Positions 1 to 34,817 of a stretch of DNA of 39,180 bases are shown one piece after another (the first letter of the stretch is position 1; every line of letters begins with the position of its first letter). The position numbers and the translations under genes were made by a program. The DNA comes from Bacteroidales bacterium (lineage in GTDB: Bacteria; Bacteroidota; Bacteroidia; Bacteroidales; CAIWKO01). Where the stretch lies: assembly GCA_035389045.1 (NCBI GenBank), contig DAOORA010000039.1:1-39180 (forward strand). The letters are read 5' to 3'. The notes under the pieces were generated by a model. The model was not told the origin of the DNA. It was given only the letters and a program-made list of their open reading frames with translations, and made no database searches.

Positions 1-46
1 ACCAAAATTTGGGCTATTTTTGATCCGAAATTTTTTGCATGCGGAT

Positions 47-277
47 TTAAGGTAATAGATTTTCTTTAAACCTGAATATTTCATCTTTGATGTTATTTGT
101 CTGATGAGACAGGGCAATCATAAAAAGCTTTACTATCGGGTCTTTGCCAATGTTATAGAACTGGCTGTTTTCATTGTCATCGTCATAATATCCGTCTTTC
201 TTCCATAACGAAACAGCGTCTTTCAGCAATTCGTCAGCATCCTGATGCCTGGGTTCTTTATTATCAATGTTTTTCAT
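47..277 (-). pseudogene. tssF: T6SS(iii) baseplate TssF, N-terminal fragment only (stops after 76 aa)
   Basis: LLKDAVSLW...DPIVKLFMIALSHQTNNIKDEI resembles the Bacteroidota TssF N-terminus (ML..AA..W...DP.V.LL..AL). It lies directly after tssE. TssF is normally ~600 aa, but TAA occurs at 47-49 with another in-frame stop shortly after. Confidence 0.65.
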
Positions 278-2634: not shown

Positions 2635-3855
2635 TTATATGTTTAAAACATGCATTTTTGCGTCGGCATAGAGTTCAACATAAACATAACCATCTTCTGT
2701 AGTTACCTGAATTATATCATTATGAGGTATCCCTATTTCTTTGAGCGTCATTTCTACATAATGAAATTTATTGTCGATGTTTTCTATTTCATTTTGTTCG
2801 ACGTCGCGTTGTAAACAGTTAAATATAGCCGGAACACTTTCAATATAATCAGGGATCTTAGATTCCGGAAGTTTTGGGAAATATCTTTTATTATCTGTAC
2901 GTGTTACGATTTTATCAACAAATTTGTCATTCCTGAGATTGATCACTGCTTTTTTAACGTTTAATTTTTCTTTGATCATTTCTAATGCATCAGCAATCGT
3001 GGTGTCGGCGCTTAATCCGTCAATTCTGACCACAGGTTCCCAGGTTTCGTGGGCAGCGCAGGTATCATCAAATATCTCAGATTTGTATCGTTTTGCATTG
3101 AGAAAAAGTCCATCATAACTGAACCAACTGCCGCATAACGATTCAAAAGCGCCTGTTTCCAGTTCTTCATGATGTATCAGTTTCATGGCTTCCTGTACCT
3201 GGATAGCGCCAATGATTGATGCGATTACAGGCGTTGTGGCAACGCGCCCTTCCTTTTCGTTTCGTCTCGCATAACCTCCGCAGGGGAAGGTGTCGAAAAT
3301 GACTTTTTTGGCGCTTTCGGTAAGTTCACATTCAAAACAGTTCCTTCCGGGTGAAAATACTTTTGCCGTACCCGACAGATCGAATATCCCCCCGTCTATC
3401 CAGGGTTTTCCGGCCCTCATACACATCCTGTTCAACTGAAGCCGGGCAAAATTTCCATCCAGACATCCTATAATTACATCCATCCGGCGATATATAGCCA
3501 GGCCCACATCGGTTGCAAGTCTGCCGATAATATACTGAATATTAATGGTCGGATTGATCTCCTTCAGCCTTTTTGCTGCAACTTCGGCTTTAAATAACCC
3601 CTTATCGGCATCTGATTCACGAAATAATATGGAACGTGTCAGGTTGCTGTATTCAATGGTGTCAAAATCAATAATCATAATATTTCCCACGCCGAACAGT
3701 GCCAGATTTTTGAGTACTTCATTTCCTAATGCACCTGCGCCAACCACCATTACCCTGGCATTTTTAACCTTATCTGATTTAAACCACGAAAGCAAAGGGA
3801 AAACCTCTTTTCCCCACTCTTTTTTTTCCTGTTGATCCAATTCGATGTTTTTCAT
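2635..3855 (-). CDS. Ubiquitin-activating E1-like enzyme (ThiF/UBA family) with catalytic Cys and putative C-terminal ubiquitin-fold domain
   Basis: VVGAGALGNEVLKNLALFG, DFDTIEYSNLTRSILFR and CLDG..AR adenylation motifs; CFEC Zn pair, then candidate active-site FPCGG; later CAAH; C-terminal MTLKEIGIPHNDIIQV resembles the Uba2/Uba3 UFD end. Confidence 0.9.
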   Translation of the reverse strand: MKNIELDQQEKKEWGKEVFPLLSWFKSDKVKNARVMVVGAGALGNEVLKNLALFGVGNIMIIDFDTIEYSNLTRSILFRESDADKGLFKAEVAAKRLKEINPTINIQYIIGRLATDVGLAIYRRMDVIIGCLDGNFARLQLNRMCMRAGKPWIDGGIFDLSGTAKVFSPGRNCFECELTESAKKVIFDTFPCGGYARRNEKEGRVATTPVIASIIGAIQVQEAMKLIHHEELETGAFESLCGSWFSYDGLFLNAKRYKSEIFDDTCAAHETWEPVVRIDGLSADTTIADALEMIKEKLNVKKAVINLRNDKFVDKIVTRTDNKRYFPKLPESKIPDYIESVPAIFNCLQRDVEQNEIENIDNKFHYVEMTLKEIGIPHNDIIQVTTEDGYVYVELYADAKMHVLNI

Positions 3856-5979: not shown

Positions 5980-8439
5980 TTATTTGTCTTTTTCGACATA
6001 GGTAAATTTTGTATTTCCGATGATAAAAGAGGTGCCATGTGTAAGATGGATAATGTCCCCAACCTTCAGCGTCCTGCCACTGCCCAAAATTGTTCCCTCA
6101 CTTATCGCCTTGCAATAAGGCCTGTCATTTTCGAGGTACAGTTCCACTTGTTTATCAGCGATCTTACCTTTATCATCCCAATTGATTTGAATAACACAAT
6201 CAATAGATTTTCCGATAGTCACTTTGTTGAATCCGCCCGATACATTCATCCATTTATAAATAGCAATTTCGCGGTCTTTCATAGGCCCTTCCGTATGAAG
6301 GAAATATTTTTGAGAAATAAAATGTACCACGGCAATTGCCACACCCAAACCTGCTGCATACAGCATATAACTGAACAAGCCGATTATTTCCTGAGCAAAA
6401 GTTGAAAGATATAACACGATGAAACTGAACAGCACGGATATGATGCCGCCAATGAGTGCATTTTTAAATTTGATCTCGGTTTTATAAGATACGGATAATG
6501 CCATGGCTGCTGCAAAAAACAACCACGGGATCCAATCCAGCCAGATACAGTTTGAACTTTTGCCTGCGATAATAATTATTACAGAGCTCAGTAAAAAGGC
6601 AATAAAACCCAACAAGCTGCCGATCAGGGAACGTAGCAGTAAAATGCCGATAACTTTAATCGTCTTTTTTCGAAATTCGATGTAATAGCAAAACACAAAC
6701 GTTAAAAAGAAACCCAGTACCAATCCTGTAAGCAAAAACGTAGGTATTTTGAATTGAAACTGCCTTATTATATTGGGATCTACAACTTCATCGGGTAATA
6801 CTTCATGGGCGATGGGATAAAAAACATCTGTCAAAAAAGAAACCAGGCCATTAAACAAAAGGGCTGAATATATGATCTTGAAAAAAATCCAGGATAATAT
6901 TCCTCCGATCATTCCAAACAAGACCCAGGGCAGATAATATGACCCGTTTCTCGGATCGGTCAATTGCTTTTTATTGTAATAATGAATGCCGGTACTGCAG
7001 TTTTTGCTTCCATATTCAGGGCAACGGTTCCGGTTTTCCTCCCAACATTCCCAATGGACAATATGTTTACACTTTGTAACGATCATATCGCCATCTTCAA
7101 ACCTCTTTTTATCGAAATAACATCTTTCGTCAACCAATTCATTGCCGCTTCCATCGCTTACCCCTCTCCGGTAAGGCACCACATACTTTTTTTTGAAGAT
7201 TCTGTACTGGATATAAGGAATAAGGATTTGCATGATCCCATAAACAATAAGAACAAACAATGCTCCGAATAATAATCCAATACCTATCTTTTTCCAAACA
7301 GACTGTGTTGACTGTATCTCACCCTCACAACTTCTATCCGGAACTTTACATGGCGATAACGGGGTGCAATACGTGTATTCTTTTTCCCCGTAAGCTTTTA
7401 AGGTGCCTTTTTCTATCTCTATCAGAAGCGTAGTGCGGTCTCCTCTATAGGTTTTTCCGGCAGGATTAAGCAATACCAGGCGATAATCGGCACTTATATC
7501 ATCAATGGTTTTAAACATTATATTACGTATAGAATCAGATGAAAAAGCCCGGTGGAATTTACCTTTCATTTGATTTTCGGTTCCTGTGTTGCAAATTATT
7601 TCCATTTCATCTGCTATGTCTTCAATCATATCTGATTCCCCGAAGAAAATGCAATGTATGGGTATATTCGGCATTTCTTTATTAAGGATTTTTTCTCTTA
7701 TGATAGAAGTTAATTCAATCTTTTGTTTGAAAAAATCCCCTCCGGCGATAAATTCATCTCCGTTCCTGACTTTACCGTTGGTGAGCACAAACAACATTTT
7801 AGGGGATGCGGTATCTTTTAACTCCTGGTTATATGCTACCTCCGGGTAATACCGGTGTGAATTTTGGCCTGACAATTCATAGATTTTGGCTAATATTGCC
7901 TCATATAAATGCTTTTCAGAACGCGTACGTTCAGCAGCTTTATCTAAAGAATAATTCAATTCCGCAATTGAAAATTCCACAGATGAAGTTACAGAAGCAT
8001 CCATTAATGAAAAATATATTTTATTATTCGGAAGTAATTCTTTTAACTCTTTTATGGCTTCCTTTTGCTTTTTAATTTCTTTTTCATCAATAGAAGCACT
8101 TACATCCATCAAAACGAGGATGGAAATATCTCCGATTACATTTTTATCATTCAGGTATCTCGATTCAATGAAAACAGGGGCGTATGCGCTGTCGAAACCA
8201 GTTTCTCTGATTTTGATATTAGGTTCTTTAATGTCACCGAAAATGATTTTTTTATTACCTTCTGTCATTTTAACATCGCAATAGATCGTGTCGTAAAATT
8301 CCGAATGGTTAATGGCCACGAATTCCACTTTTGAAACAGCATTTGTATTATCCTCAGACGTTATGTCATTTTGCGATGTTTTTTTATTACAAGAAATAAA
8401 AAGTAATAAAGTAAGTATCAAAATCACTGGTTTTTTCAT
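5980..8439 (-). CDS. Membrane lipoprotein: vWA domain - TM - RING-H2-like finger - ~6 TM - FHA-like domain (putative membrane E3 ligase)
   Basis: Likely start MKKPVILILTLLLFISC (lipobox; ORF track starts at 8460). MIDAS DVSAS, LYEAI and VLTNG motifs; TM at IGLLFGALFVLIVYGIM; CYFD-x15-CKHIVHWECWEENRNRCPEYGSKNC (6997-7122); six further hydrophobic helices; C-terminal VTIGKSIDCVIQI...L.HG..FIIGNTKF. Confidence 0.8.
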   Translation of the reverse strand: MKKPVILILTLLLFISCNKKTSQNDITSEDNTNAVSKVEFVAINHSEFYDTIYCDVKMTEGNKKIIFGDIKEPNIKIRETGFDSAYAPVFIESRYLNDKNVIGDISILVLMDVSASIDEKEIKKQKEAIKELKELLPNNKIYFSLMDASVTSSVEFSIAELNYSLDKAAERTRSEKHLYEAILAKIYELSGQNSHRYYPEVAYNQELKDTASPKMLFVLTNGKVRNGDEFIAGGDFFKQKIELTSIIREKILNKEMPNIPIHCIFFGESDMIEDIADEMEIICNTGTENQMKGKFHRAFSSDSIRNIMFKTIDDISADYRLVLLNPAGKTYRGDRTTLLIEIEKGTLKAYGEKEYTYCTPLSPCKVPDRSCEGEIQSTQSVWKKIGIGLLFGALFVLIVYGIMQILIPYIQYRIFKKKYVVPYRRGVSDGSGNELVDERCYFDKKRFEDGDMIVTKCKHIVHWECWEENRNRCPEYGSKNCSTGIHYYNKKQLTDPRNGSYYLPWVLFGMIGGILSWIFFKIIYSALLFNGLVSFLTDVFYPIAHEVLPDEVVDPNIIRQFQFKIPTFLLTGLVLGFFLTFVFCYYIEFRKKTIKVIGILLLRSLIGSLLGFIAFLLSSVIIIIAGKSSNCIWLDWIPWLFFAAAMALSVSYKTEIKFKNALIGGIISVLFSFIVLYLSTFAQEIIGLFSYMLYAAGLGVAIAVVHFISQKYFLHTEGPMKDREIAIYKWMNVSGGFNKVTIGKSIDCVIQINWDDKGKIADKQVELYLENDRPYCKAISEGTILGSGRTLKVGDIIHLTHGTSFIIGNTKFTYVEKDK

Positions 8440-8470
8440 AGTTGGGTGGGTTTTTATCATGTTGGTATTT

Positions 8471-10111
8471 TTAAATTCTTTTTCTTCTTATCCATGCTTT
8501 CATTTCTTCGAGCGAAAAATAATATAAGGAGGGTTCTTCATGTGCACCCGTTTCAATATTATAGTTTAAGCAGGCATACAATTCATTGTCGTTTTTGTAA
8601 ACAATAAAAAAATCATATTGTTTAATGATGGTGTTATATTTAATAAATAGTTCCGAATTGCCTAAGCCGGATTCTGCAATTAAGCAACCACTTACCCGGC
8701 TGTTGGCGGAAGTTAAACAATGCTCAATAATGATGTTTTTCCGCCTGTTATCAGCCATTTGGCTGAATCCCGAAAAATAGCCGACAACTCCCTTATTGCT
8801 GGAGTAAATGATATCATCTATATCGTTTATTGAATTAGCTGAAAACAGGATGGACCGGATCGTACTGTTCTTGATGGGTAATTCAAAATAGTTATCGGGG
8901 CTGCTGATATTTGTTACAATGTTTTCTTCTTTTGGTTTTCTGCTCCATTGATACAGGTCTTCCCATGAGAAGGTTTTTTTACAATCATCTTTGTTATTCA
9001 TTGTTCCGTTCATCTTTGGTGTGAAAAATGCTGTTTGCCAGTCAGAAGTATTGGTGTCAATAACAATGGCAAGCATCCTGTTTTTAGCACCGGAAACAGA
9101 AACCTGATTCTGGACAATAAGATCATGGCCCGAAAGAAAAAGTCCCAAACCCGGGTGGGAGTGCATCCAGGCTGTGTGCTCATAATTGCATTTGGTCTTT
9201 TCACTGATATTGTTGAGTGTACTGCCCAGGTAGACGCCAATTTTTTGCCCGAACTGCAGGTCGTATTCTCCGTAAACAACATCGTCGCCCGGTTCAACAA
9301 GATATTCCAGACTGATATTATAGCTTGTTTTATCGTATCCGTCATATTCCCAACGGCCAATGATATAACAACCTGTTTCCGGAGTCCGTTCAGAGTTTAC
9401 TAAGAATTTCTTGAACAGGTCGTAAATGCTTTTTATGGCTGCACGGCTGATAAATATGTTGTGTATGGCTGTATCAAAATAAATCTGACGTGCGTCCAGC
9501 ACATAATAATTCCCGATATCGTTTCTGACACCATCAAGCCCAACGGTATAATCGGGCGTTCCGTCATCTTCTTCAATAACCTCAAATTTGTTATCCTCGG
9601 GTTTTATTTTTTCGTCCACAGGTTTTTTCTTTCTTAATTTTAAATAAATAAGCAGCACGATCAACATCAATATTCCGGCTGCTGCAACATACATCCACCA
9701 TTGGATTTCAATCAGGGGAGCCACTGTGGTTTTTGGAATAAAATTTATTTCAATGTCAGTCGGGGTTTCAAAACTTATTCCCTCTTGTTTGTAATAAGTC
9801 AGCACATCCCCTTTTTTTATTTTTTCCTGCGGTATTTTAAATTTTAAAACTTTATCATCGCCTTCAAGCAGATATGCGTCAATATCGTCAAAGTCTTTCG
9901 TTTTAAAAGCCGTTTCAGGAGAATAATAAACCGCTTCAATTACTTTCTGAACTCTGATCTGAATAATATTTTTACATTTCTTTTCAATGGTCAATATCCC
10001 TGTATTTTCGTCATAATCAGCAGTAACATCCTGAGAATAAACCGGGTGGATGCAATTTAAAATCAGAAGCAAAAAGAAAATGACATATAAACTATAATTA
10101 TGTTTAATCAT
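8471..10111 (-). CDS. Membrane-anchored JAB/MPN+ (JAMM) metalloprotease, putative deubiquitylase/Ubl maturase
   Basis: Signal peptide, ~110-aa exported domain, TM (WWMYVAAAGILMLIVLLIYL) followed by KLRKKK; ETGCYIIG...WMHSHPGLGLFLSGHD (9122-9163)...LAIVID is an intact JAMM motif; possible degenerate second MPN at the C-terminus. Confidence 0.88.
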   Translation of the reverse strand: MIKHNYSLYVIFFLLLILNCIHPVYSQDVTADYDENTGILTIEKKCKNIIQIRVQKVIEAVYYSPETAFKTKDFDDIDAYLLEGDDKVLKFKIPQEKIKKGDVLTYYKQEGISFETPTDIEINFIPKTTVAPLIEIQWWMYVAAAGILMLIVLLIYLKLRKKKPVDEKIKPEDNKFEVIEEDDGTPDYTVGLDGVRNDIGNYYVLDARQIYFDTAIHNIFISRAAIKSIYDLFKKFLVNSERTPETGCYIIGRWEYDGYDKTSYNISLEYLVEPGDDVVYGEYDLQFGQKIGVYLGSTLNNISEKTKCNYEHTAWMHSHPGLGLFLSGHDLIVQNQVSVSGAKNRMLAIVIDTNTSDWQTAFFTPKMNGTMNNKDDCKKTFSWEDLYQWSRKPKEENIVTNISSPDNYFELPIKNSTIRSILFSANSINDIDDIIYSSNKGVVGYFSGFSQMADNRRKNIIIEHCLTSANSRVSGCLIAESGLGNSELFIKYNTIIKQYDFFIVYKNDNELYACLNYNIETGAHEEPSLYYFSLEEMKAWIRRKRI

Positions 10112-10115: not shown

Positions 10116-10895
10116 TTATATTTCAGGTGTATCGTTGGTTTTTTTTGTGGCAGCTTTTAATAGTTTTTTGCTTTTCAAAATATTATATATCATTACCGCG
10201 AAAAAAACTATGGCAAATACGATGGCTATCTTTAGAATAATGCCCCATATGTCTTTTTTAGGTTCAAGATATAGTTTGTTTATGTTTTCTTTTGATTGGT
10301 TGGACGAATCGCAGAGAGCCAGTAACTCCGGTTCGCTTTTAATAAAATCTTCATTGTCGGTATATAAGATTTCAAACCGGGCATTAAGTTTTATGAAGTC
10401 TTCTCCTTCTTTGAGTAATTTAAGGGAATCTCTTTCCTCATTTTTCACAAAAAGATCACCTTTTTGTTTCATTATTTTATACTGTGAAAGGAAGTCGTTC
10501 AGCTTGTTTTTAAAGTCAGATTTCTTCTTTTCCCGGGCGCCCCCTTCTGTCAGATCTTTGATTTTTTTATCTATTTTAATTTGTAAATCAACACATTGGT
10601 CATAGATTTCTCCCAGATTTTCATTGTTTTCAATGGACGAAAAATAGATTTTACTGTAATTTTCAAATTTATCATTGGCTTTTTTAATATTTGTTTTAAG
10701 GTTGTCGTCAATATCCGAAATCTCTTTTATAGATTTTTCAATTTCTTCAAAGTCCTTCTTGTATTTTGAAAGTTTGTTTTCAATTTCCTCAGTAATAGCA
10801 GGGTCATCGAGCGTTTGACCCATGGCATCATTCCTTATAAAAAGGGAAACTATATTTATTATAAATACAATAAAAAGTATTTGCGGTTTTTTCAT
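10116..10895 (-). CDS. Hypothetical bitopic membrane protein (signal peptide, helical periplasmic domain, C-terminal TM, Lys-rich tail)
   Basis: N-terminal hydrophobic signal, coiled-coil-like body, IWGIILKIAIVFAIVFFAVMIY, then KSKKLLKAATKK. Confidence 0.7.
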   Translation of the reverse strand: MKKPQILFIVFIINIVSLFIRNDAMGQTLDDPAITEEIENKLSKYKKDFEEIEKSIKEISDIDDNLKTNIKKANDKFENYSKIYFSSIENNENLGEIYDQCVDLQIKIDKKIKDLTEGGAREKKKSDFKNKLNDFLSQYKIMKQKGDLFVKNEERDSLKLLKEGEDFIKLNARFEILYTDNEDFIKSEPELLALCDSSNQSKENINKLYLEPKKDIWGIILKIAIVFAIVFFAVMIYNILKSKKLLKAATKKTNDTPEI

Positions 10896-10952: not shown

Positions 10953-12143
10953 TTATTTTTTGACCTTTATATTGTAAAAATCAACAGCCCCGTTATAGCT
11001 GTCAATAGCATCTTTTACTTTTTTTATACTTTTACATAAAGCACCGTATTTGCTGATTTTAGGACTCATATTTTTAATAATATCATCTATTTCGCTTATA
11101 TCTGTTTTTTTATCTTTATCCCATTTTGTCACTAGGTTGTTTATCTTTACAGCAGCCTGATTAAGTTCTGCAGGGTCAAGCAGACATGTCATATCATCTC
11201 TGTATTTCGTTATTCTATCAACCCACGAATGATACTCCCGGACATTAGATAACAGGGTTGGACATAAGGAATTACCATATAGTCCGTCGATATTCAATTT
11301 TTTGTCTTGCGCAGAAACATCGGATTTTATCTGGTCACAATCCCTTTTCCTTTTTTCTTTTTTAGCCACTTCCAGATCATTATAACTGCTTTGTAAATTC
11401 ATGATCAGGCTGTCAACTATTTTTAAGGCCTTAATTTCATCAACACACGGGTCTCGTAAAAGTTTTATATTGATTAGCGGGCCATCTGAAATATATTGCA
11501 AAACCACTTTTTTGCTGTATTTAGACGAACTGCCTGTGCTTTTAGCCGGGATAAAACCGAAAAACCTCAGATCAACAACTGTTGCTTTGTTTATAACCTT
11601 ATAATTCATTGATAGTTTCAAATTCAGTGTGTCCATAAGATTTAAATTAAACATCTCATTCCGGAGTTTTGATTGCGTCTCTTTTGATGCACCGGCTGTA
11701 CATCTGACCGTATCGGCAACATCATAACCCGAAAACTCACAATTTCTGCAGGTAACCGGGTACAATTCCGTCATCTTCACTTCTTTGACCTGCTTTGTAA
11801 AATGGCTGTTCAATGAAACATTTACATCGTATTTATCCTTAAAGGCTTTTGTAAATTTTCCAAGATTGGTCAGATAGAAACCATTATTATCAGGCGGTAT
11901 CCATAACAGGTTATAGTTCGATTGCTTTTTGCTGCTGATAATTGCCGTGATGGTTTCTATGGACTGATCATACACTAAGGTCAAATCCAGATCAACAGTT
12001 TCACATTTTTTATGTGAATATTTGTAGGGCTTTAATTTCAGTGAAATAGTAGTGTCTTTTTGATGTCTCAGTATAAAAGTTGATTGGGCGCCAACCGTAT
12101 ATGCACAAACAGAAATACATATAAATATTACGAATTTTTTCAT
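10953..12143 (-). CDS. Hypothetical exported Cys-rich protein
   Basis: SpI signal ending VGA-Q; many Cys; start overlaps the upstream E2 stop (ATGA, 12140-12143). Confidence 0.7.
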   Translation of the reverse strand: MKKFVIFICISVCAYTVGAQSTFILRHQKDTTISLKLKPYKYSHKKCETVDLDLTLVYDQSIETITAIISSKKQSNYNLLWIPPDNNGFYLTNLGKFTKAFKDKYDVNVSLNSHFTKQVKEVKMTELYPVTCRNCEFSGYDVADTVRCTAGASKETQSKLRNEMFNLNLMDTLNLKLSMNYKVINKATVVDLRFFGFIPAKSTGSSSKYSKKVVLQYISDGPLINIKLLRDPCVDEIKALKIVDSLIMNLQSSYNDLEVAKKEKRKRDCDQIKSDVSAQDKKLNIDGLYGNSLCPTLLSNVREYHSWVDRITKYRDDMTCLLDPAELNQAAVKINNLVTKWDKDKKTDISEIDDIIKNMSPKISKYGALCKSIKKVKDAIDSYNGAVDFYNIKVKK

Positions 12144-12742
12144 GGCTTTTTGGTTTTATATTTTTTTAAATCATCTATCCATCCCTTTGGCTCAGCCTGT
12201 TGAACAACCCAATGAGCAACGATATCATCTTCGGGGTAGGGTGGGTCAATAACGGAGGCATGGTATTTTTCATATTTAAGGTATAAGGCAACCCTGTCAA
12301 TATATAAGGCCAGATCGGTGTAAGTGCCTGAGGCCAGTTCGTTGAGGCAGACCTTTCCTGCAAAATCGCCGTAATATCTGATATTGGGGTGCCAGGGATG
12401 AGGAATATTCTGGCCGGTATTGTCTTCAGTAAGGAACGTAAAGACCAACTTGCTACCGACGGTAGGATAATTATTAGGGATAATGATCCTCATAATAAAC
12501 TTATCAGCAAAGACGGGATATTCCAATCCGTCTTTATCTTTTTCCAATATCCCGCAAAAAGATCTGATATGGTATGTGATCTCAAAAACAACAGGAAGCC
12601 CGTCGGCATTTCTTTCACTGATGATATACGAAATCTCATTATTTTTCCCCAGGCGTTTATCTATGGTTTCCCATTCCCACATCAGACGTGCATTCCTGTG
12701 TATGAAATTCTTCAGTTTTAGTTCTTCAATTTCCTGTAACAT
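12140..12742 (-). CDS. Ubiquitin-conjugating E2-like enzyme (paralog A)
   Basis: IIIPNNYP and HPWHPNIRYYGDFAGKVCLN: UBC PxxYP and HPN..C signatures. Confidence 0.85.
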   Translation of the reverse strand: MLQEIEELKLKNFIHRNARLMWEWETIDKRLGKNNEISYIISERNADGLPVVFEITYHIRSFCGILEKDKDGLEYPVFADKFIMRIIIPNNYPTVGSKLVFTFLTEDNTGQNIPHPWHPNIRYYGDFAGKVCLNELASGTYTDLALYIDRVALYLKYEKYHASVIDPPYPEDDIVAHWVVQQAEPKGWIDDLKKYKTKKP

Positions 12743-12845: not shown

Positions 12846-13439
12846 TCATTCATTTTTGCTTTTCAAATCCTCGATCCATCCTTTGGGTTCTGCCTGTTTA
12901 ACGACCCATTCAGCTACTTTTTCATCCTCGGGGTAGGGCTTTTCGCCAATAATCGCATGGTATTTTTCGTATTTCAGGTATAAGGCAACCCTTTCAATAA
13001 ACAATGCCAGTGAAGTAAAAGAACTGAAAGCATCTTTATTGAGACAGACCCGTCCTACAAAATCACCGAAAAACCGGATATTCGGATGCCAGGGATGCGG
13101 AATTTTGTTTCCGTGAATATTTTCCGTTAAAAATCTGAATACCAACTTGCTTTCAACACTTGGGAAATTATTGGGAATATTAATTCTCATAACAAACCGG
13201 TCGGCATAAACAGGGTATTGGAAGCCGTCGCCATCTTCTTCCAGAATATCGCAAAAAGAATGGATATTGTATATAATCTCATATACAACCGGAAGGCCTT
13301 CTCCGTTTCGTTCCCTGATGATGTAGTTGACGTCCCTTTTGTTTTGGAAACGGGCGTCTATTGCAATCCATTCATCTAACAGGCGCAGCTGGGAACCTTT
13401 AAAATTCTTGTTTTTGTAAAATTCTATTTCCTGACTCAT
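12846..13439 (-). CDS. Ubiquitin-conjugating E2-like enzyme (paralog B)
   Basis: INIPNNFP and HPWHPNIRFFGDFVGRVCLN; colinear and clearly similar to 12140..12742. Confidence 0.85.
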   Translation of the reverse strand: MSQEIEFYKNKNFKGSQLRLLDEWIAIDARFQNKRDVNYIIRERNGEGLPVVYEIIYNIHSFCDILEEDGDGFQYPVYADRFVMRINIPNNFPSVESKLVFRFLTENIHGNKIPHPWHPNIRFFGDFVGRVCLNKDAFSSFTSLALFIERVALYLKYEKYHAIIGEKPYPEDEKVAEWVVKQAEPKGWIEDLKSKNE

Positions 13440-13441
13440 AA

Positions 13442-13768
13442 TTATTTAAGTCCTCCAGCTTTAGGGTCCGGAACCAGTTCAATCGTGTCTCCATTTTTGA
13501 CATTATAGTCATGCAGGCAAAATTCTGTTTTGCCCCGTTTCGCATGAAGAAGAAGAACCTGCCCGTTTTCATCTATTTTTCCGAAAATATAATCGACAGG
13601 AACACCGTCAACGCCAATACTTGGCATGTCGAACAGGTATTTCCCTTCTTTATTCTGAAGGTGTTTCAGGTTTTTTATCAGTACCTCAAGATTGCTGTTA
13701 GGGTCATTTACCTTAACTTTTGTTTTTTTGTTCTGATACTGAATGAATAAATAAAAATTTTCTTCCAT
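13442..13768 (-). CDS. Ubiquitin-like beta-grasp protein with C-terminal Gly-Gly plus a 2-residue extension
   Basis: C-terminal CLHDYNVKNGDTIELVPDPKAGG-LK resembles ubiquitin TLSDYNIQKESTLHLV..GG; stop lies 2 nt before the E2 start. Confidence 0.8.
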   Translation of the reverse strand: MEENFYLFIQYQNKKTKVKVNDPNSNLEVLIKNLKHLQNKEGKYLFDMPSIGVDGVPVDYIFGKIDENGQVLLLHAKRGKTEFCLHDYNVKNGDTIELVPDPKAGGLK

Positions 13769-15789: not shown

Positions 15790-16449
15790 TTATTCAATAC
15801 CTCCCTGATATTTTTTTTCCGATATAATTTTTCCGGTTTCGCCATCTATTTCATAAGTTGTCATCCTGTAAAATTTATCTGTTACAGATACATTCCATAT
15901 TTTATTCTTTTCATCATAGAGAACAGATAATCCATCCCTGTTTTCTCCTGTTTCCATGTTGATATTTTTTCTTGAATGTAAAAACGATAACAATTTATTA
16001 TAATCAAAATTTCCATATTTCAGGTCTTCATCTGTTTCTTTGGTTTTATTACCTGTTTCATCAAAATACTCCCATTTTCCTATTCGAAGACTTTTATTCC
16101 CGATCACATTTCCATCAAATTTCAAATTACCATTGCCATAATACTGGGAGTAATTTCTATAAAAATAAGGTAGAGGCGGTTTGTGCCAGACAATAAATCC
16201 ATCTATTTTATTGCCGGATATTCTAACATAAACGCCATCTTTGGTTGTGTATTCCCAATCATATTCATAATATCCTTCCTTACCACTCATTGGTGATATT
16301 TTTGCATTCTTTTCCAATAATTCAAAATCAATCGTTTTATCTATATTCATATTGGTAAATTTAATGTTTTGTGTATTAACATGCTGAGAGCATCCTGTTA
16401 TTAAAACCGCTAACAATATTATGCTGTATCTGATCATTGAAATAATCAT
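15790..16449 (-). CDS. Lipoprotein, putative cognate immunity protein (MORN-like segment plus PepSY-like C-terminus)
   Basis: Lipobox VLITGC; YYGNGNLK..IGKWEYFDETG; WNVSV..YEIDGETGKIISEK; start overlaps the effector stop (TAATG at 16449). Confidence 0.7.
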   Translation of the reverse strand: MIISMIRYSIILLAVLITGCSQHVNTQNIKFTNMNIDKTIDFELLEKNAKISPMSGKEGYYEYDWEYTTKDGVYVRISGNKIDGFIVWHKPPLPYFYRNYSQYYGNGNLKFDGNVIGNKSLRIGKWEYFDETGNKTKETDEDLKYGNFDYNKLLSFLHSRKNINMETGENRDGLSVLYDEKNKIWNVSVTDKFYRMTTYEIDGETGKIISEKKYQGGIE

Positions 16450-18152
16450 TAATTAATTTTATTATTCATGATTTTCCATTGCCAATGAAAAGTACTTCTT
16501 CGAATGAGATTATTCCAATGCGAATAATCCATGACATTCTCTGTTTTCAACGCTTCGAAAGTATATTTGCCATTTTCAGAAGTTTCTTCGGCAACAAAAG
16601 TATGAGGCAGTCCCAGCGAATGTAATAACTCATGCGAAGCAGTAGAATTATTATGCCCATTAAATACAATACAAGAATCTGTCCCGGGAACGGAAAAACC
16701 TAAAGTACCCCCTTCGCATACTTCATCCAGTGCATATACCTTAAAATAGCTTGCATATTTACTGTCTAATTCATTTTTTACTCTGTTATTCAAATAGGTT
16801 AATAAATTACCATTGAATTTTATTTCATGCGTCGCCGAATTAATATATACAGGGTCAAGTGAACCGATATTAAAAGTTACTTCAGTATCTTCTTTAAGGG
16901 AAACATAGGCTTGATTTAAAATGTTTTTGATAGTATCAATTCCGCCATTAAATATTCCGACTTTTTCGCCATTTCCAATATCTACCCTGATTTTTATAAG
17001 AACAGCATCCATAATTCGCCGATGTGCATCATCATTGGCTAATACAAGGAGTTTTCCGCAAATCATCCCATCCAATTCAATTTCAATAATTTGATTTTGT
17101 TCAAAGGTATTTTTACATTCCAAAGTAAATGAGAAGTCTTTTGGATCGCCTTCATTAATTTTGGATACATTTATATCAGTTGCTGTAATATTAAAAAATG
17201 CATGGTCATATTTCCATACAAGATTTGCAGGGTCGATGACACCTTTTTTTTTACTGATAATTTTTCTGTACACCCTTAACGATAGTTTTATTGTTTTTCC
17301 TTTTAATACCGTTAATGTTGGCGTGTGTTCCATAAGTTCCGTATCCCCATGATTTGTATCCCAGTATTTAGAATATGTATCATTAAAAAAGGTACTTTTT
17401 AATTTTTTATACATTTCATTTTTTGCCGGATCCGGTTTAGCAGAATCTTTTTCAAATACATCGGACCAGCTATTGATATTAATGCAATATTTATGAGAAG
17501 CAGCGGGACAGGTCATTCCATATGTGTTTACTGAGGCACAGTTGGCTCTTTTAGTTGCGCAGGCGTTGCTTAAATACTTTCCAAGCAACTCTTTTGTATC
17601 ATAATCATTTCCTTTTTCATTATTATCTTTGGTTTTGATTTTTTCATCCTTAAACCGCACCCAGTCAAATCCATATTCACCTTCCCATACATCATGAGGG
17701 CGGAAAATACCATAACATTTTGGATAATGTTTTATTTCTGTACTACCTCCTCCTGATGCACCTGTCTGGCATTTGCTTGCAGGATGTCCGTCGGTAATGA
17801 ACGAGATACTGCCTGCCCACATACATTGCAACTTGCAGTCATCCATCAGGGCAGGCTGTCCTTTTACGAGTACATCTTTGCTGCCGGGAACCCAGGGCAT
17901 AGTCGTAACAGGAACACAGGGCTGAGGAGTTAATACCCCCATGGCAGCACTTGTTGCGACGGCTACTTGTGGATTAGACAAAGAATTGCACATCCCGAAC
18001 GGAGCAATATTTATCGTTGGCTTGTTATCCATGATATTTGCCAGGGGGTTATTGCATAAATCAGTCAATTTGTCCGGCAAAACAGTCATTGCTGAAGGAT
18101 TAGCTCCAAAAGTACATTTCATTTGTGCTGTGCTGCATACATAATTGGGCAT
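16449..18152 (-). CDS. DUF4280 (PAAR-like) spike tip fused to a zinc metallopeptidase effector
   Basis: YVCSTAQMKCTFG..NIAPFGMC..PCVP..W..C.W.G.I is a DUF4280 pattern; C-terminal HELLHSLGLPH (HExxHxxGxxH) plus NVMDY Met-turn; directly after vgrG. Confidence 0.85.
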   Translation of the reverse strand: MPNYVCSTAQMKCTFGANPSAMTVLPDKLTDLCNNPLANIMDNKPTINIAPFGMCNSLSNPQVAVATSAAMGVLTPQPCVPVTTMPWVPGSKDVLVKGQPALMDDCKLQCMWAGSISFITDGHPASKCQTGASGGGSTEIKHYPKCYGIFRPHDVWEGEYGFDWVRFKDEKIKTKDNNEKGNDYDTKELLGKYLSNACATKRANCASVNTYGMTCPAASHKYCININSWSDVFEKDSAKPDPAKNEMYKKLKSTFFNDTYSKYWDTNHGDTELMEHTPTLTVLKGKTIKLSLRVYRKIISKKKGVIDPANLVWKYDHAFFNITATDINVSKINEGDPKDFSFTLECKNTFEQNQIIEIELDGMICGKLLVLANDDAHRRIMDAVLIKIRVDIGNGEKVGIFNGGIDTIKNILNQAYVSLKEDTEVTFNIGSLDPVYINSATHEIKFNGNLLTYLNNRVKNELDSKYASYFKVYALDEVCEGGTLGFSVPGTDSCIVFNGHNNSTASHELLHSLGLPHTFVAEETSENGKYTFEALKTENVMDYSHWNNLIRRSTFHWQWKIMNNKIN

Positions 18153-18156
18153 GACC

Positions 18157-20133
18157 TTAAGGATTTATTTTAACAATAGATCCTTTAATATCCATGGTAG
18201 CTGCTGCTTCTAACTTCATAGTAGAATCTGATTTCAGTTCAAACGCCTGTGATGAAATCTTATGCTTTTGAGTAGCCCTTCCTTCAATATTATTAGATTC
18301 TAACTGGTATGTTTCGCCTATACTATCATATTTATTATTCCCAATTTCTTCTTTTTGATCTTTATTTACCGTTAGATTATGATTTTCACCGATCTTGGTG
18401 TCCATATTTTTACCAATATCTTCATTCATATTCTCACCGGCATTAACAGCAATGTCTTTACCGGCTTTTATGGTGATATTATTGGTGGCATTCAGAATTA
18501 TATCTTTTTCAGATACCAATTCAATGTTGCCCTTTGATTCTAGTTTAATTAATTTATTGTCGGTAGAGAAAGTGAGTTTGTAATTATCTTTTCCATTATC
18601 ATAAATAGAAATAAAGCCCCCGGGGTCTACATCGTGAATTTCGATGGTGTGCCCGTTGCGTGTACGTATGGCTTTAATATTGTTCTTATCGTTGTACCAT
18701 TTGCTTTCGGGCTTTTGCTTTCCGTGGTATAAGGTTCCCGCCACATAGGGTTTTTCAGCGTTGCCGTTTTCAAAACCCACCAGGACTTCATCGTCAACTT
18801 CCGGAAGGAAATAAAAACCTTTTTCTTTTCCGCCATGCGGCTGCGCTATGCGGAGCCATGGAGACAACAAATTATTGGCCTGTAATTCCTGCCAAATGAA
18901 TTGAACCCGGATTCTGCCGAGTTTTTCAGGGTCTTTATTGTCTTTAACTATGGCACGCTGGGATTCAGCATAAGGATAGGCATCACTGTCCGAATAGGGC
19001 GGGTAAGTTGCCTTCGCAGGAACAGCCGTTAACTCATTTTCATATTTTCCATTAGTGTTAAGGCTGTGTGTGATTTTACAAATGATCAGTTCATCATGAT
19101 CTAATTCTCCCGCATTGATATTTTTATCTTTATCATAACGATCGTGGATTTTTATTTTGCTTCCTATTTGCAGGTCTGCACGATTGGTAGTTGCATAGCA
19201 GAGGATCATGTTGCTTTTGCTTCCTAATCCCTGGCTTTTGAGTGATTCGTCCAATTGATCTGTTGAATTGCCTTCCTGTATACCGGAATGCAGATTTTGA
19301 ACCGTTAATTTCTTGTAGGCAGTGTCTGAATGATTATAAGAATAATCGGTTAAGGGGTGTAAATTTGCGTTAGTAAGTCCTTTGGCATTTTTGGAATTGT
19401 TTTTATATTCCAAATAGTTGTGGCAGTAATGAGTGAAGTTGATATGGTTCAGATTTAACTCATATTTGTAATTTATTATATCAATGCCGGGATTTAGTGT
19501 TATGGATTTTTTTTCGATGATCTTTCCGAATGTCATTTTGCCGTCTTCAAAATAAAAAAATTCACCATATCGTTTTGCCAGGCGCATTAAAAATCCGTAA
19601 GTGGTTTCATTGTATTGAACCACATAGGGGATCGCTTTATCCATTTTGGGGTCAATAACGGAGTCTATGATTTTAGTAGGATCCTTTGTATAATCCTTTA
19701 TGGATTCCGTAATAATATCTTTTAATTTTTTTTCTTCAAAAGAGTAACAATGAGGATTATCGTTCAAAAGATGATCCGGGCTGAACGCTGTTATATCAAA
19801 AACAACATCTTTATCAGAAGTACTACGCGCGGAATTTATGTTAAAGATGATCCCTATAAAGGAAAGAGTTTGGGAGAGATCACCCCCTTTTCTGTCTTTA
19901 ACATTGGTTTCGATTTTTAATTCAACTTTGGCGCCTAAAAGATCATCTGCAATTTTGAATTTTACATCATCCTGACACCTTGAAACTATCTTTTTCCTTA
20001 TTGAAATCTCTAATTTATTGGGTTTTAACAACTCTTTTGACAATGTGGCTGCTTTAATGGAGTAATCAGAATTTTTATCTGTATATGATTTGCCGCCGAT
20101 CTTAATTTCAAAAGTTTTTATGGGTACAGGCAT
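18157..20133 (-). CDS. vgrG: T6SS spike protein VgrG (TssI)
   Basis: VQYNETTYGFLMRLAKRYGEFFYF, DNKDPEKLGRIRVQF, FYFLPEVDDEVLVGFENGN, TRNGH and a beta-helix C-terminus. Confidence 0.95.
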   Translation of the reverse strand: MPVPIKTFEIKIGGKSYTDKNSDYSIKAATLSKELLKPNKLEISIRKKIVSRCQDDVKFKIADDLLGAKVELKIETNVKDRKGGDLSQTLSFIGIIFNINSARSTSDKDVVFDITAFSPDHLLNDNPHCYSFEEKKLKDIITESIKDYTKDPTKIIDSVIDPKMDKAIPYVVQYNETTYGFLMRLAKRYGEFFYFEDGKMTFGKIIEKKSITLNPGIDIINYKYELNLNHINFTHYCHNYLEYKNNSKNAKGLTNANLHPLTDYSYNHSDTAYKKLTVQNLHSGIQEGNSTDQLDESLKSQGLGSKSNMILCYATTNRADLQIGSKIKIHDRYDKDKNINAGELDHDELIICKITHSLNTNGKYENELTAVPAKATYPPYSDSDAYPYAESQRAIVKDNKDPEKLGRIRVQFIWQELQANNLLSPWLRIAQPHGGKEKGFYFLPEVDDEVLVGFENGNAEKPYVAGTLYHGKQKPESKWYNDKNNIKAIRTRNGHTIEIHDVDPGGFISIYDNGKDNYKLTFSTDNKLIKLESKGNIELVSEKDIILNATNNITIKAGKDIAVNAGENMNEDIGKNMDTKIGENHNLTVNKDQKEEIGNNKYDSIGETYQLESNNIEGRATQKHKISSQAFELKSDSTMKLEAAATMDIKGSIVKINP

Positions 20134-20226
20134 AATTAATATTGTTTAATAAATAAAAACATCACTACATATATTATCATTTATAAGCAAAATCATATAA
20201 CAGGTTTAACTAATCCGGGCAGGCCA

Positions 20227-20643
20227 TCAAACGATCAGATCATCGATCACACAATTATCATCAGGTCCAAAAACAACGGTTCCGGGAACAATACTGATTT
20301 TCATGTACATCATTGAAGTTTTTGCCTCGATGTTGCCAAAGTTGAAACACTCGATGAGTTTAACGCAATATGCATCTTTAAAAGAGACAGTTTTCTTTTT
20401 TTCCACATTGTTTGCATTAACTATCAGGGTAAGTTTGCCATCTTTGGTTGTGTTTATGTCTCTCATCCATTCATGCAGTGTAAAATCCGTATCGTCGGGC
20501 ACATCCAGGCTGATATTTATTTTTCCCCCTCCTGTTTTGCCTGAAGGTCTTCCTGTTTCATCACATTCCTGATTGAACTCATAATCGCACCTTAGAATTT
20601 TGTATGATTTGTTACCAATTTCCAATGTTCCGGTTAAGGCCAT
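20227..20643 (-). CDS. tssD: T6SS tube protein TssD/Hcp paralog 2
   Basis: CDYEFNQECDETGRPSG..GGKI...EWM...KDG...FKDAYCV. Confidence 0.85.
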   Translation of the reverse strand: MALTGTLEIGNKSYKILRCDYEFNQECDETGRPSGKTGGGKINISLDVPDDTDFTLHEWMRDINTTKDGKLTLIVNANNVEKKKTVSFKDAYCVKLIECFNFGNIEAKTSMMYMKISIVPGTVVFGPDDNCVIDDLIV

Positions 20644-20670
20644 AATAATTGTTTTTTAAAATTAAAAAAG

Positions 20671-20707
20671 AAAAAGGCTGATTAACTGATAGCTAATCAG
20701 CCTTTTT
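20671..20707 (-). terminator. Intrinsic terminator/attenuator between the two hcp genes
   Basis: Minus strand AAAAAGGCTGATTAGCT-ATC-AGTTAATCAGCCTTTTT hairpin followed by a T-rich tract. Confidence 0.8.
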
Positions 20708-20716
20708 TTAAAAAGG

Positions 20717-21109
20717 CTACGCCCATTTACTTTCATAGGTCACAGGTCCGTTTGTTATTGACCTGCAAGAAATAACTACCTCTTCAGAATGACCTGTTCC
20801 TTCTTCCCATATTTCGGTAAAATCAATGCAATACGCATCTTTAAACTCGATTGTTTTCATTTTGCCACCTTTCACCGTTTCGAGGAACTCGATCGAACCA
20901 TCTTTATTGAGATTCGGGCTCACCATCCATTTCAGCATATCAGGGCATCCGTCGTTCATTGCTTTAACGCGGATAGTAATAAGTCCGCCTCTCGGAATAC
21001 CTGACATTTGTCCTTCGACGTCTGTAGCCTGGTTAAATGAGTATTTAACCATCATTACTTCGCGGTCTTTAAAGTCTTTAACTTTTAATGTTACTGGAGT
21101 TTGTGCCAT
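20717..21109 (-). CDS. tssD: T6SS tube protein TssD/Hcp (major)
   Basis: REVMMVKYSFNQATDVEGQMSGIPRGGLITIRVKA...FKDAYCIDFTE; follows tssC. Confidence 0.92.
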   Translation of the reverse strand: MAQTPVTLKVKDFKDREVMMVKYSFNQATDVEGQMSGIPRGGLITIRVKAMNDGCPDMLKWMVSPNLNKDGSIEFLETVKGGKMKTIEFKDAYCIDFTEIWEEGTGHSEEVVISCRSITNGPVTYESKWA

Positions 21110-21152
21110 GATTTTTAAGTTTTAAGTTTATAATTAATTGCCTGGTTTATTA

Positions 21153-22523: not shown

Positions 22524-22550
22524 TTTAATAATTTTAATAATTTAATAATT

Positions 22551-23006
22551 TTAATAATTTTTTAATTCTTCCAATAATGCTTCCAATACGGCCTTCAGTT
22601 CTTCTTTTGCCTGCTTGTCTTTCATAATATCGCGCAGTTTCTTGTTCTGCTCGATTTGTTTTCTGAGTTTAGCATTTATATCAACCTTAGCTTTAATATT
22701 GGATAAAAAAGTGCTGTTGACCACAAGATTTCCTTTGCCACCATTGGCTTCAAAGTCACTCATTTCTTTAAAATGCAGCACCTCATTTACAGACCCTCCG
22801 TCTTCATCCAAAAATTCAGCTTCTGCTTTTGGTTTGAAATGATCCAAAACATCTTTGATTGTTTTCGCTTTTTCCAGAAGTTCAGGATCTCCCATTGCTA
22901 CATCATTTGTATATTGATCAATAATCAATGTTTTATTATTGTCAATCGGATTAACCTTGGCATTTGATTCTTCATCTTCAGCCCTTGAAATAAAATTTTC
23001 TCTCAT
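22551..23006 (-). CDS. tssB: T6SS(iii) sheath small subunit TssB
   Basis: NKTLIIDQYT..PELL..KTIKDVLDHFKP..EFLDEDG..NEVLHF..MSDF; immediately upstream of tssC. Confidence 0.9.
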   Translation of the reverse strand: MRENFISRAEDEESNAKVNPIDNNKTLIIDQYTNDVAMGDPELLEKAKTIKDVLDHFKPKAEAEFLDEDGGSVNEVLHFKEMSDFEANGGKGNLVVNSTFLSNIKAKVDINAKLRKQIEQNKKLRDIMKDKQAKEELKAVLEALLEELKNY

Positions 23007-28821: not shown

Positions 28822-28832
28822 ACTGGTAATTC

Positions 28833-34637: not shown

Positions 34638-34712
34638 GGGTTTAAAAATTAGTTTGTGAATAAATAATTTATTTTAAGTTGATATTTTAAAGTTTAACTT
34701 TCAAAACAATAA

Positions 34713-34720
34713 CAAATTTA
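34713..34720 (-). promoter_or_regulatory. Possible -7 promoter element for the 1934-aa gene
   Basis: TAAATTTG on the minus strand ~75 nt upstream of the ORF; the -33 element is imperfect. Confidence 0.4.
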
Positions 34721-34817
34721 ATTAATAAAATTTAAAAATGATACAATTTTATAGAATTTAACATATATTTTTAAGTTATGGTATTTGTATTTGTTGTGTT
34801 CTAAATTCTCCAGGGAT

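Follow-up and report, generated by a model that had tools for sequence, protein, structure and literature searches.

Contig DAOORA010000039.1 of a Bacteroidales bacterium (GenBank assembly GCA_035389045.1), analyzed here in its whole length of 39,180 nucleotides and called the window throughout this paper, encodes on its reverse strand a putative membrane protein in which a periplasmic vWA domain, one transmembrane helix (TM), a cytoplasmic RING-H2 finger, six more TMs and an FHA domain follow one another (hereafter the RING protein). We lean towards the reading that this protein is a membrane-embedded RING-type E3 ligase, or an E3-like adaptor, of a ubiquitin-like protein (Ubl) cascade that specifically serves one distinct clade of type VI secretion systems (T6SSs) in Bacteroidales, and that it is itself a part of the envelope apparatus. 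Three things are established directly from the sequences, namely the predicted architecture and topology, the conservation of the RING ligands across the family, and the genomic coupling of the gene to those of the Ubl, the E2, the E1 and the T6SS baseplate. The combination of a RING E3 with a UBC-type E2, an E1 and a Ubl that ends in Gly is a hallmark of eukaryotes, and here the full cascade appears to be hard-wired into a T6SS variant without the known Bacteroidota membrane hub.

RING finger, topology and flanking domains of the RING protein

The RING protein and its predicted parts are located in the window as follows, in the order of the protein chain:

5980..8460, (-): whole open reading frame (ORF), vWA - TM - RING-H2 - six TMs - FHA membrane protein, 826 aa from the first ATG
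8389..8439, (-): residues 8-24, a signal peptide; the hydrophobic N-terminus closes with LLLFISC(24), in which LFISC resembles a lipobox
7486..8148, (-): periplasmic vWA, residues about 105-325, with DVSAS at 119-123 and beta-rich flanks
7216..7284, (-): TM1, residues about 393-415, followed by a Lys/Arg-rich stretch
6997..7122, (-): cytoplasmic RING-H2, C447 D450 C464 H466 H469 C472 C480 C488, with W473 and P481
6319..6936, (-): residues 509-714, TM2-TM7 forming a six-helix membrane bundle; its acidic segment 532-571 does not span the membrane
5983..6315, (-): cytoplasmic FHA, residues 716-826, without the canonical phosphothreonine (pThr) Arg/Ser/His

These parts were delimited by hydropathy analysis, direct reading of the sequence and a Pfam scan of all 25 long window ORFs. 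Residue numbers follow the 826-aa version; the database copy (P0001) begins at M8 (position 8439), the probable start, and is 819 aa long. Along the chain, the hydrophobic N-terminus is followed by an acidic stretch of about 370 residues that contains DVSAS, a strong TM and, after it, YRIFKKK, a Cys/His-rich loop, the hydrophobic helices at 509-714 and a tail of 111 residues. ORF reading, hydropathy and structural models agree on this order, from lipobox to FHA, which had first been proposed in a sequence-only reading of the window. The architecture is not a product of chance, since it recurs in 221 proteins at E<=1e-3 (90% clusters) and in 346 clusters at 50% identity; nearly all of the relatives are 750-830 aa in length, and those that have a name are labeled hypothetical. 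A carrier scan with one genome per species yielded 92 carriers, the best 80 loci of which were kept, and the family figures given below refer, where the number of sequences is 79, to an alignment of the window copy with 78 of these 80 loci, two loci with ORFs shorter than 700 aa having been dropped.

The RING finger follows the pattern C447-x2-D450-x13-C464-x-H466-x2-H469-x2-C472-W473-x6-C480-P-x6-C488. Conservation of the ligands among homologs had been named beforehand by the sequence-only reading as one of its refutation tests, and ligand positions 1 and 3-8 were found to be invariant (79/79). Ligand 2 is Cys in 77/79 members and Asp in 2/79; the aspartate noticed at the outset is therefore real, occurring in this alignment in the window copy and in an 80% identical relative (L005), and it was also seen in 3 among 36 database homologs. 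W473 is present in 79/79 and P481 in 76/79 sequences, the Trp and Pro residues of RING fingers having a role in E2 binding. The last ligand pair has the form C-P-x6-C, and the canonical C-P-x-C is seen in one homolog only (P0109, among the 36 database proteins). When compared with Pfam at E<=0.01, the RING segments matched zf-RING_2 in 79/79 cases (best 3.9e-7) and Prok-RING_1 in 78/79 (best 4.9e-7). The family RING profile was also compared with the PDB sequences, and all 30 matches at E<=1 (30/30) are named RING-finger proteins, mostly RING-H2 E3 ligases, including RNF126 (4.3e-3), synoviolin/Hrd1 (0.028), RNF13 (0.38), ZNRF3 (0.41), RNF24 and ZNRF1. A complex prediction of the RING loop (416-508) with the E2 called E2b below, run without zinc and without controls, gave ipSAE values of 0.38, 0.19 and 0.09 (median 0.19 versus a mark of 0.32) and speaks neither for nor against binding.

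The sequence data fit a seven-pass protein with the vWA domain in the periplasm and both RING and FHA in the cytoplasm. A signal peptide was recognized in all family members seen, either with a Cys lipobox or of the AxA-Q type; a regular-expression count of lipoboxes (42/79) is an undercount by eye and is not used as a family figure. Seven TMs are recognized by hydropathy (n=79, maximal 19-residue Kyte-Doolittle mean 1.65-2.67), TM2-TM7 corresponding to helices 509-531, 572-592, 603-632, 638-658, 667-687 and 691-714, and the segment 530-571, which reaches only 0.74, forms a short extra helix in the AlphaFold2 model and is insufficiently hydrophobic to span. Lys and Arg are clustered after TM1 (4.49 per 15 aa, n=79) and in the TM3-4 and TM5-6 loops, and the segments 532-571, TM4-5 and TM6-7 are neutral to acidic. 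The exported N-terminus, the hydropathy and the Lys/Arg distribution would thus place vWA outside and RING and FHA inside, in agreement with the sequence-only reading.

The whole-protein AlphaFold2 model, built on an alignment of 36 homologs chosen among 120 listed, has a predicted local distance difference test value (pLDDT) of 78 and a predicted TM-score (pTM) of 0.59. Its periplasmic part adopts a vWA fold, with ITIH1 as the best Foldseek match (E 1.9e-7). VIA-align gave a best Z of 17.3 (rmsd 2.9 over 175 residues, model residues 103-313), and its 50 entries range from Z 17.3 to 13.6 over about 165-190 residues, most of their titles being vWA or integrin I-type domains. Both searches with the whole model were dominated by vWA, and their matches carry no information on the fold of the six-helix bundle. 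Pfam VWA on the window copy remained below its cut-off (E 3.4e-4, 21.3 bits vs 23.8). The D-x-S-x-S motif of the metal ion-dependent adhesion site (MIDAS) is found in the window copy (DVSAS, 119-123). It is not conserved in the family: among the 36 homologs the Asp alone is invariant, with ADQGM, DKGLS and DHGET as examples, which makes conserved metal-dependent ligand sensing by the vWA domain doubtful.

For the C-terminal 111 aa, an AlphaFold2 model was obtained with a pLDDT of 91.7 and a pTM of 0.86, and every Foldseek match listed is an FHA domain or an FHA-containing protein (TM-score 0.62-0.76), the best being the FHA domain of ArnA (E 4.3e-6, TM-score 0.72). Pfam FHA had no match at E<=0.01 in the window copy; it matched 60/79 family members (best 4.7e-9), and the Xylanibacter ruminicola ortholog (L075) passes with 27.5 bits vs a cut-off of 20.7. 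Yop-YscD_cpl, the family of the cytoplasmic domain of YscD from type III secretion systems (T3SSs), was matched by 21/79 FHA segments. The FHA profile is weakly similar to PDB sequences (DgcB FHA 0.13, Rad53 0.99), and it was the fold search that decided the FHA identity. The pThr-binding residues (GR, SxxH), whose positions were taken from the HMMER alignment to the DgcB FHA, are replaced in the window copy by K751, A768 and Q771, as the sequence-only reading had remarked. In the family, position 751 is K in 54, R in 11, S in 11 and H in 3 of the 79 members; position 768 is A in 58, R in 8, S in 5 and another residue in 8; and position 771 is Q in 59, H in 14, A in 5 and another residue in 1.

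A separate observation concerns the extreme C-terminus, T-x-F-T-Y-x-E-K-D (window 5983-6003, residues 817-825), in which T817, F819, T820, Y821, E823, K824 and D825 are invariant (79/79). This motif, which includes a Lys, could be a docking motif or a conjugation site.

The ubiquitin-like cascade and its type VI secretion setting

The window encodes a Ubl, two E2s, an E1 and a JAMM/JAB peptidase (JAB) in the same direction as the RING protein:

13442..13768, (-): Ubl, ending in ...PDPKAGG-LK, with the invariant Gly105
12846..13439, (-): E2a, a paralog of E2b, 64% identical to it
12140..12742, (-): E2b, UBC-type E2, HPWHPNI...GKVCLN
2635..3855, (-): E1-like ThiF adenylating enzyme, 406 aa, Pfam ThiF 2.9e-51
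8471..10111, (-): membrane-anchored JAMM/JAB peptidase with signal peptide, TM at about 136-160, HSHPGLGLFLSGHD

Gly105 of the Ubl is invariant. In 70/75 loci the last codon is a Gly directly before the stop, and two more end in PFPG and then the stop. The window Ubl and those of three relatives are longer by two or three residues, and these four all belong to the JAB clade described below, in loci that encode a JAMM peptidase. The Ubl profile resembles ubiquitin weakly, and the Ubl segments matched the Rad60-SLD, ubiquitin and YukD families at E<=0.1. As for the E2s, HP[NH]...C was found in 74/75 ORFs, UQ_con was matched by 48/65, and the E2 profile aligns its HPN and Cys with those of UBE2K. 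One E2 is the rule (70/72 loci); two are encoded in tandem in the window, two in L005 and three in L011. The JAMM motif HSHPGLG[LI]FLSxxD is kept in 22/22 orthologs of the peptidase, and in 19/22 of them a crude scan recognized a hydrophobic segment by which the catalytic domain would be held on the cytoplasmic side; of the remaining three, one is a truncated ORF. Judged by these motifs, the Ubl-E1-E2 cascade looks functional. PADLOC (2023 models, E<=0.01) gave 0 matches for the RING protein, JAB, E2a, E2b and the Ubl, and the E1 matched its CBASS E1-E2 models via the shared ThiF fold (best 2.4e-17); the RING protein, JAB, the E2s and the Ubl were also without a match in NCBIfam.

The link to type VI secretion that the sequence-only reading had supposed is borne out by the locus, where the RING gene is embedded among T6SS genes together with the Ubl, the E1, the two E2s and the JAMM peptidase. 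When the window proteins were searched against the 80 loci (tblastn, 1e-5), the Ubl had a match in 75/80, TssE and a conserved 279-aa protein each in 74/80, TssK in 73/80, E2 in 72/80, E1 in 68/80 and JAB in 22/80. Ubl, E2 and E1 are found together in 62/66 loci that hold at least 9 kb upstream, and in 61 they are accompanied by TssK, TssE and the 279-aa protein. Of the four exceptions, three are second paralogs and one is a locus cut off downstream by the end of its contig. Two gene orders were recognized. In the window type the module is placed between VgrG and E1, and in the Prevotella/Alistipes type the order is E1 - 279-aa protein - TssK - TssE - TssF-like - Ubl - E2 - two exported proteins - RING gene - Hcp - VgrG.

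A quick tree divides the family into a JAB-associated clade, which contains the window copy and has a small sister group of second paralogs, and a JAB-less clade. The second paralogs, which form a separate branch, are RING proteins about 31% identical to the first copy; together with a second Ubl they are encoded about 15 kb away from the first, immediately next to PAAR/VgrG, in four loci: L029 (with L012), L030 (with L019), L079 (with L028) and L049. The 80 loci originate from uncultured Bacteroidales, Alistipes, Parabacteroides, Bacteroides and Prevotella/Xylanibacter, and from five bins labeled otherwise. In these five (L053, L068, L073, L082 and L084, labeled Bacillota or Spirochaetota) the proteins nest within the Prevotella-type clade, and their contigs are probably mis-binned. 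Xylanibacter ruminicola D31d, Prevotella sp. ne3005 and Parabacteroides distasonis An863 are cultured carriers.

The T6SS clade that has the RING cascade is a distinct one, judged by its divergent TssC and the absence of a detectable TssN. In the genome of the window (96.3% complete) one TssC was found and TssN was not found, and five other carriers have one TssC each, at 336-365 bits, with TssN above the cut-off in 0/5. Pfam TssN (PF17555) matched none of the window ORFs, and hhalign detected no sequence similarity to TssN in the Ubl (0.5% probability) or the RING protein (0.3%). In a sample of 301 genomes, drawn evenly from the order, TssN was above the cut-off in five genomes, which are exactly those with a TssC at 740-770 bits (G031, G163, G247, G281 and G292). 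The RING protein was found in four genomes of the sample, two of which (G000 and G216) have a TssC of about 351 bits and are without TssN, and no genome of the 301 had both TssN and the RING protein. These results suggest that the order contains two T6SS lineages with different membrane parts, and they suggest further that a T6SS type not covered by the GA1-GA3 survey scheme is present in Bacteroidales of gut and rumen. GA1-GA3 are the only types counted for gut Bacteroidales in the accessible text of a 2024 preprint, which reports no T6SS in Segatella or Hoylesella, as searched by BLAST with GA1-GA3 consensus sequences (PMC10942478).

The gene is present in sequencing runs labeled activated sludge and anaerobic digester. 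Contigs of 151-194 nt that are identical to parts of the gene, including 6955-7148 over the RING codons, occur in two metatranscriptome runs, each from a different study, and this is a weak hint that the gene is transcribed. A further RNA run (X11) gave no contig that could be placed on the gene, and the pieces in another (X13) are only 95-99% alike and may come from a relative.

The other genes of the locus are listed below.

290-781, (-): TssE
802-1680, (-): TssK
1684-2523, (-): conserved 279-aa protein
3857-4588, (-): outer-membrane beta-barrel protein, an envelope partner in the window's clade (22/80 loci)
4834-5961, (-): exported coiled-coil protein, 375 aa, an envelope partner in the window's clade (14/80 loci)
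10116..10895, (-): exported coiled-coil protein anchored by a C-terminal TM, 259 aa; L075 has a counterpart of 294 aa with a similar layout
10953..12143, (-): exported protein, 396 aa; L075 has a counterpart of 388 aa with a similar layout
16449..23006, (-): T6SS core by Pfam, with PAAR-like DUF4280, VgrG, two Hcp, TssC and TssB-like

They belong to one co-directional array. Its first part consists of TssB-like, TssC, two Hcp, VgrG, the PAAR-like DUF4280 protein, a small lipoprotein and an Ig/PKD protein sorted by the type IX secretion system (T9SS); in the middle are the 108-aa Ubl, the two E2-like proteins, two exported proteins, the JAMM protein and the RING gene; and the end is formed by the exported coiled-coil protein, the outer-membrane beta-barrel, the ThiF E1, the 279-aa protein, TssK and TssE. 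The window is the entire contig and ends just past TssE at a short repeat common to two other contig ends. Its first 52-56 bases (window 1-56) are repeated where contigs C47 and C63 of this genome begin, and this repeat at assembly breaks means that the T6SS locus is cut right after TssE. In the nearest relative, the genes after TssE encode TssF, an NlpC/P60-LysM protein and a ClpV-like ATPase.

Some side observations were made on the same genes. In the 375-aa coiled-coil protein (4834-5961), repeats of roughly 90-100 aa are visible (NKKIKELQ...LNKEI..LQ..KDKLSAE...), and self-BLASTP gave the full-length match only. At window 15790-18152, the PAAR-like DUF4280 protein has a C-terminal extension of 440 aa without a family match and is followed by a 219-aa lipoprotein, the layout of an effector-immunity pair. 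Three very large T9SS-sorted proteins (window 24604-39055) adjoin the T6SS locus, one with cohesin/dockerin and Ig domains, one with a Kelch propeller, a beta-helix and a dockerin, and one with thirteen FN3 repeats.

Proposed mechanism and competing explanations

In the proposed mechanism, the E1 would adenylate the C-terminal Gly of the Ubl and hand it over to the Cys of the E2. The cytoplasmic RING loop, located at the inner membrane between TM1 and TM2, would then recruit the E2~Ubl and promote the transfer of the Ubl to a lysine of a nearby target, which may be a baseplate or membrane-complex subunit or the RING protein itself. The FHA domain would dock a cytoplasmic partner in a phospho-independent way, like the FHA-like domains of YscD/PrgH in T3SSs and of EssC in type VII secretion systems (T7SSs), and the periplasmic vWA region would link the RING protein to the exported proteins encoded alongside it. 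In the window's clade, the membrane-anchored JAMM peptidase would trim the two residues after the Gly and could also remove conjugates; RING, FHA and the catalytic domain of JAB are all predicted to be on the cytoplasmic side.

A wider proposal, which we put forward tentatively, is that the TssN-less T6SS clade of Prevotella, Alistipes, Parabacteroides, Bacteroides and the sludge and rumen lineages may be built around an envelope-spanning RING ligase, its assembly or firing being dependent on the covalent attachment of an endogenous Ubl by E1, E2 and RING in the manner of eukaryotes. If true, this clade would provide the first case of a secretion machine that runs on bacterial 'ubiquitination', and the RING protein would be a membrane RING E3 of a free-living bacterium that acts on proteins of its own cell. 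The cultured carriers make two questions testable, namely the role of a bacterial RING E3 and the way in which T6SSs without TssJLM or TssN are anchored and controlled.

Several points weigh against an E3 role of the RING protein in a T6SS clade of this kind. The window RING is below every Pfam RING cut-off (zf-RING_5, 22.5 vs 27.9 bits; zf-RING_2, 21.4 vs 27.3 bits); with Prok-RING_1 (PF14446) it has an E of 0.055, and the X. ruminicola ortholog reaches 19.6 bits vs a cut-off of 29.1. Because ligand 2 is Asp, the window copy could bind zinc less well. The Trp stands directly after ligand 6, compared with four residues after it in classical RING-H2 fingers, and the last knuckle has a 6-residue insert. 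A longer insert in the last ligand pair is described as a trait of prokaryotic RINGs in the accessible part of a review (PMC11354881). The four paralogous copies are without their own E1 and E2, and JAB is absent from 58/80 loci, so that reversibility would not be general. The RNA libraries mentioned above can contain DNA. In the 301-genome sample, two of the four RING carriers have fragmented assemblies that yielded no TssC, and since the genomes are few and related, the contrast between TssN and the RING protein should be read as a pattern without statistical weight.

One alternative, which we consider unlikely, is the receptor switch envisaged by the sequence-only reading: the vWA domain would sense a cue from the envelope or a neighboring cell and turn the RING on, Ubl conjugation would trigger the assembly or firing of the T6SS, and JAB would reset the system in a manner like that of PpkA/Fha1/PppA. 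The layout of ectodomain, TM and cytoplasmic RING speaks for it, DVSAS is kept in the window copy, the window encodes both a writer (E1/E2/RING) and, in JAB, a candidate eraser, and FHA domains recur in T6SS regulation, as in the H1-T6SS of Pseudomonas aeruginosa. However, the MIDAS is degenerate in most relatives shown, and the description as receptor-like is weakened. The comparison with PpkA/Fha1/PppA could not be upheld: kinase and phosphatase families matched 0/25 window ORFs and 0/18 ORFs of the X. ruminicola locus at E<=0.01, the pThr residues of the FHA domain are replaced in most of the 79 members, and the eraser is missing from the 58 loci without JAB. Any likeness therefore lies in the logic at most and not in the parts, with a writer and an eraser acting on a T6SS.

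It is also improbable that the RING protein is a structural subunit only, i.e., a scaffold of the membrane complex whose RING is a zinc-stabilized binding module without E3 activity, the E2 transferring the Ubl by itself or with another factor. The strict coupling to baseplate genes in genomes without TssN, the co-encoded exported and anchored partners and the 21/79 FHA segments that match the YscD cytoplasmic-domain family would suit such a scaffold; a vWA domain without a conserved MIDAS is what is expected of a structural domain, and bacterial E1-E2 systems without an E3 do exist (CBASS Cap2 and Bil). On the other hand, the seven invariant ligands, the invariant Trp and the near-invariant Pro suit E2 binding better than a bare zinc scaffold, and the RING gene occurs together with E2 and Ubl in 62/66 loci.

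We think it quite unlikely that the ligase serves the tagging of cargo, in which Hcp, VgrG, PAAR proteins or effectors would be marked with Ubl for loading or export and the machine itself would not be regulated. The second RING paralog and second Ubl beside PAAR and VgrG in four loci are in line with this idea, as is the small Ubl (YukD/EsaB) that belongs to the core of type VII secretion according to the accessible text of PMC11217815; in the same text, however, the T7SS Ubls are without a C-terminal Gly-Gly and are not conjugated, and hence are no precedent for tagging. That an unrelated Ubl system, e.g., an anti-phage defense of the Bil or CBASS kind, is merely lodged in T6SS loci is very improbable. 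In its favor is the match of the E1 to PADLOC CBASS E1-E2 models (best 2.4e-17), through the shared ThiF fold; against it, PADLOC matched neither the RING protein nor JAB, the E2s or the Ubl at E<=0.01, and a module interleaved with TssK, TssE and VgrG in two gene orders across genera makes chance insertion hard to accept.

Comparison with known systems

The threonine phosphorylation pathway of the P. aeruginosa H1-T6SS consists of the transmembrane protein PpkA, which has a periplasmic vWA domain, Fha1 and PppA. With this pathway the RING protein shares a transmembrane protein with a periplasmic vWA domain and an FHA module on a T6SS, and a logic of writer plus eraser is possible in both; the differences are that the window locus has no kinase or phosphatase, that its FHA is not of the pThr-binding type, that its chemistry would be Ubl conjugation and that the eraser is present in 22/80 loci. 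Among eukaryotic proteins, PA-TM-RING ligases (RNF13, RNF43/ZNRF3) and the multi-pass Hrd1/synoviolin are also membrane-anchored with a cytosolic RING-H2. The comparison with RNF43/ZNRF3 made in the sequence-only reading holds as an analogy only: the window protein has a vWA and not a PA ectodomain, seven TMs and not one, a RING between TM1 and TM2 in place of a C-terminal tail, and a fused FHA domain. The sequence comparisons indicate no specific relationship to the eukaryotic membrane ligases beyond the RING-H2 class.

In T6SS-iii, the membrane complex consists of TssN-TssO-TssP-TssQ-TssR, where TssN is EccD-like and has a ubiquitin-fold domain that contacts TssK, and TssR has a vWA domain, as described in the accessible part of the work (Bongiovanni et al., 2024, PMC10781749). 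As far as that part goes, both are T6SSs of Bacteroidota without TssJLM, with a periplasmic vWA (D2 of TssR), a multi-pass inner-membrane hub (TssN) and exported lipoprotein partners (PMC10781749). In contrast to T6SS-iii, the window locus has a free ubiquitin-fold protein with a C-terminal Gly and its own E1 and E2, and its carriers are without TssN.

YscD/PrgH of T3SSs and EssC of T7SSs likewise have an FHA fold without the full set of pThr residues on the cytoplasmic face of a secretion membrane protein, and YukD/EsaB of T7SSs is a small Ubl that is a core secretion component (PMC11217815, accessible text). Unlike the window locus, these systems have no RING, E1 or E2, and the T7SS Ubls are, in the same text, without Gly-Gly and not conjugated (PMC11217815). 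A structural search of a protein atlas gave, as a side observation, a Bacillota cluster of about 570 aa with FHA, UQ_con and YscD-like families that aligns weakly (TM-score 0.30/0.40) to residues 424-825, and E2-FHA membrane proteins may occur in secretion loci of Gram-positive bacteria.

Both ends of the RING protein have their top structural neighbors in Sulfolobus ArnA (zinc finger and FHA; ArnA FHA, E 4.3e-6) and ArnB (vWA; ArnB-type vWA, Z 16.2-16.7). ArnA and ArnB are, however, separate cytoplasmic proteins of archaeal phospho-signaling, whereas the vWA and FHA domains of the window protein are predicted on opposite sides of the membrane, and the resemblance is one of fold only. Bil, an ISG15-like system, and CBASS Cap2/Cap3 are known examples of Ubl conjugation in bacteria; they have no RING E3, are soluble and are located in defense islands, and the reported conjugation target of Bil is a protein of the phage tail, which is structurally related to the T6SS. 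The bacterial cascade of E1, E2, JAB and Ubl is common to these systems and the window, but the PADLOC models miss the RING protein, the E2s, JAB and the Ubl of the window.

A literature search that combined T6SS in Bacteroidota with Ubl, E1, E2, RING and FHA, supplements being outside the search, found no T6SS locus described as encoding an endogenous Ubl cascade. The words ubiquitin, ThiF, FHA and RING are all absent from the text of Coyne 2016, whose supplements were likewise outside the search. The vWA-7TM-FHA form, the setting in a TssN-less T6SS clade and the Gly-terminated Ubl thus appear to be undescribed in the literature searched. Burroughs, Iyer and Aravind reportedly predicted, in Mol Biosyst in 2011, TM-bearing prokaryotic RING fingers in operons with E1, E2, JAB and Ubl. 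The Prok-RING_1 family is found in operons with Ubl, E1, E2 and JAB, and its members have TM helices; to our knowledge, no membrane RING of this bacterial Ubl-operon kind has been experimentally tested, its cognates being predicted from genomes. A 2006 paper of the same group considered RING E3s, in its accessible part, to be apparently eukaryotic. Like the prokaryotic RINGs of 2011, the finger described here is part of a TM-bearing bacterial protein encoded with Ubl, E1, E2 and JAB, and the RING protein probably falls within the scope of that prediction.

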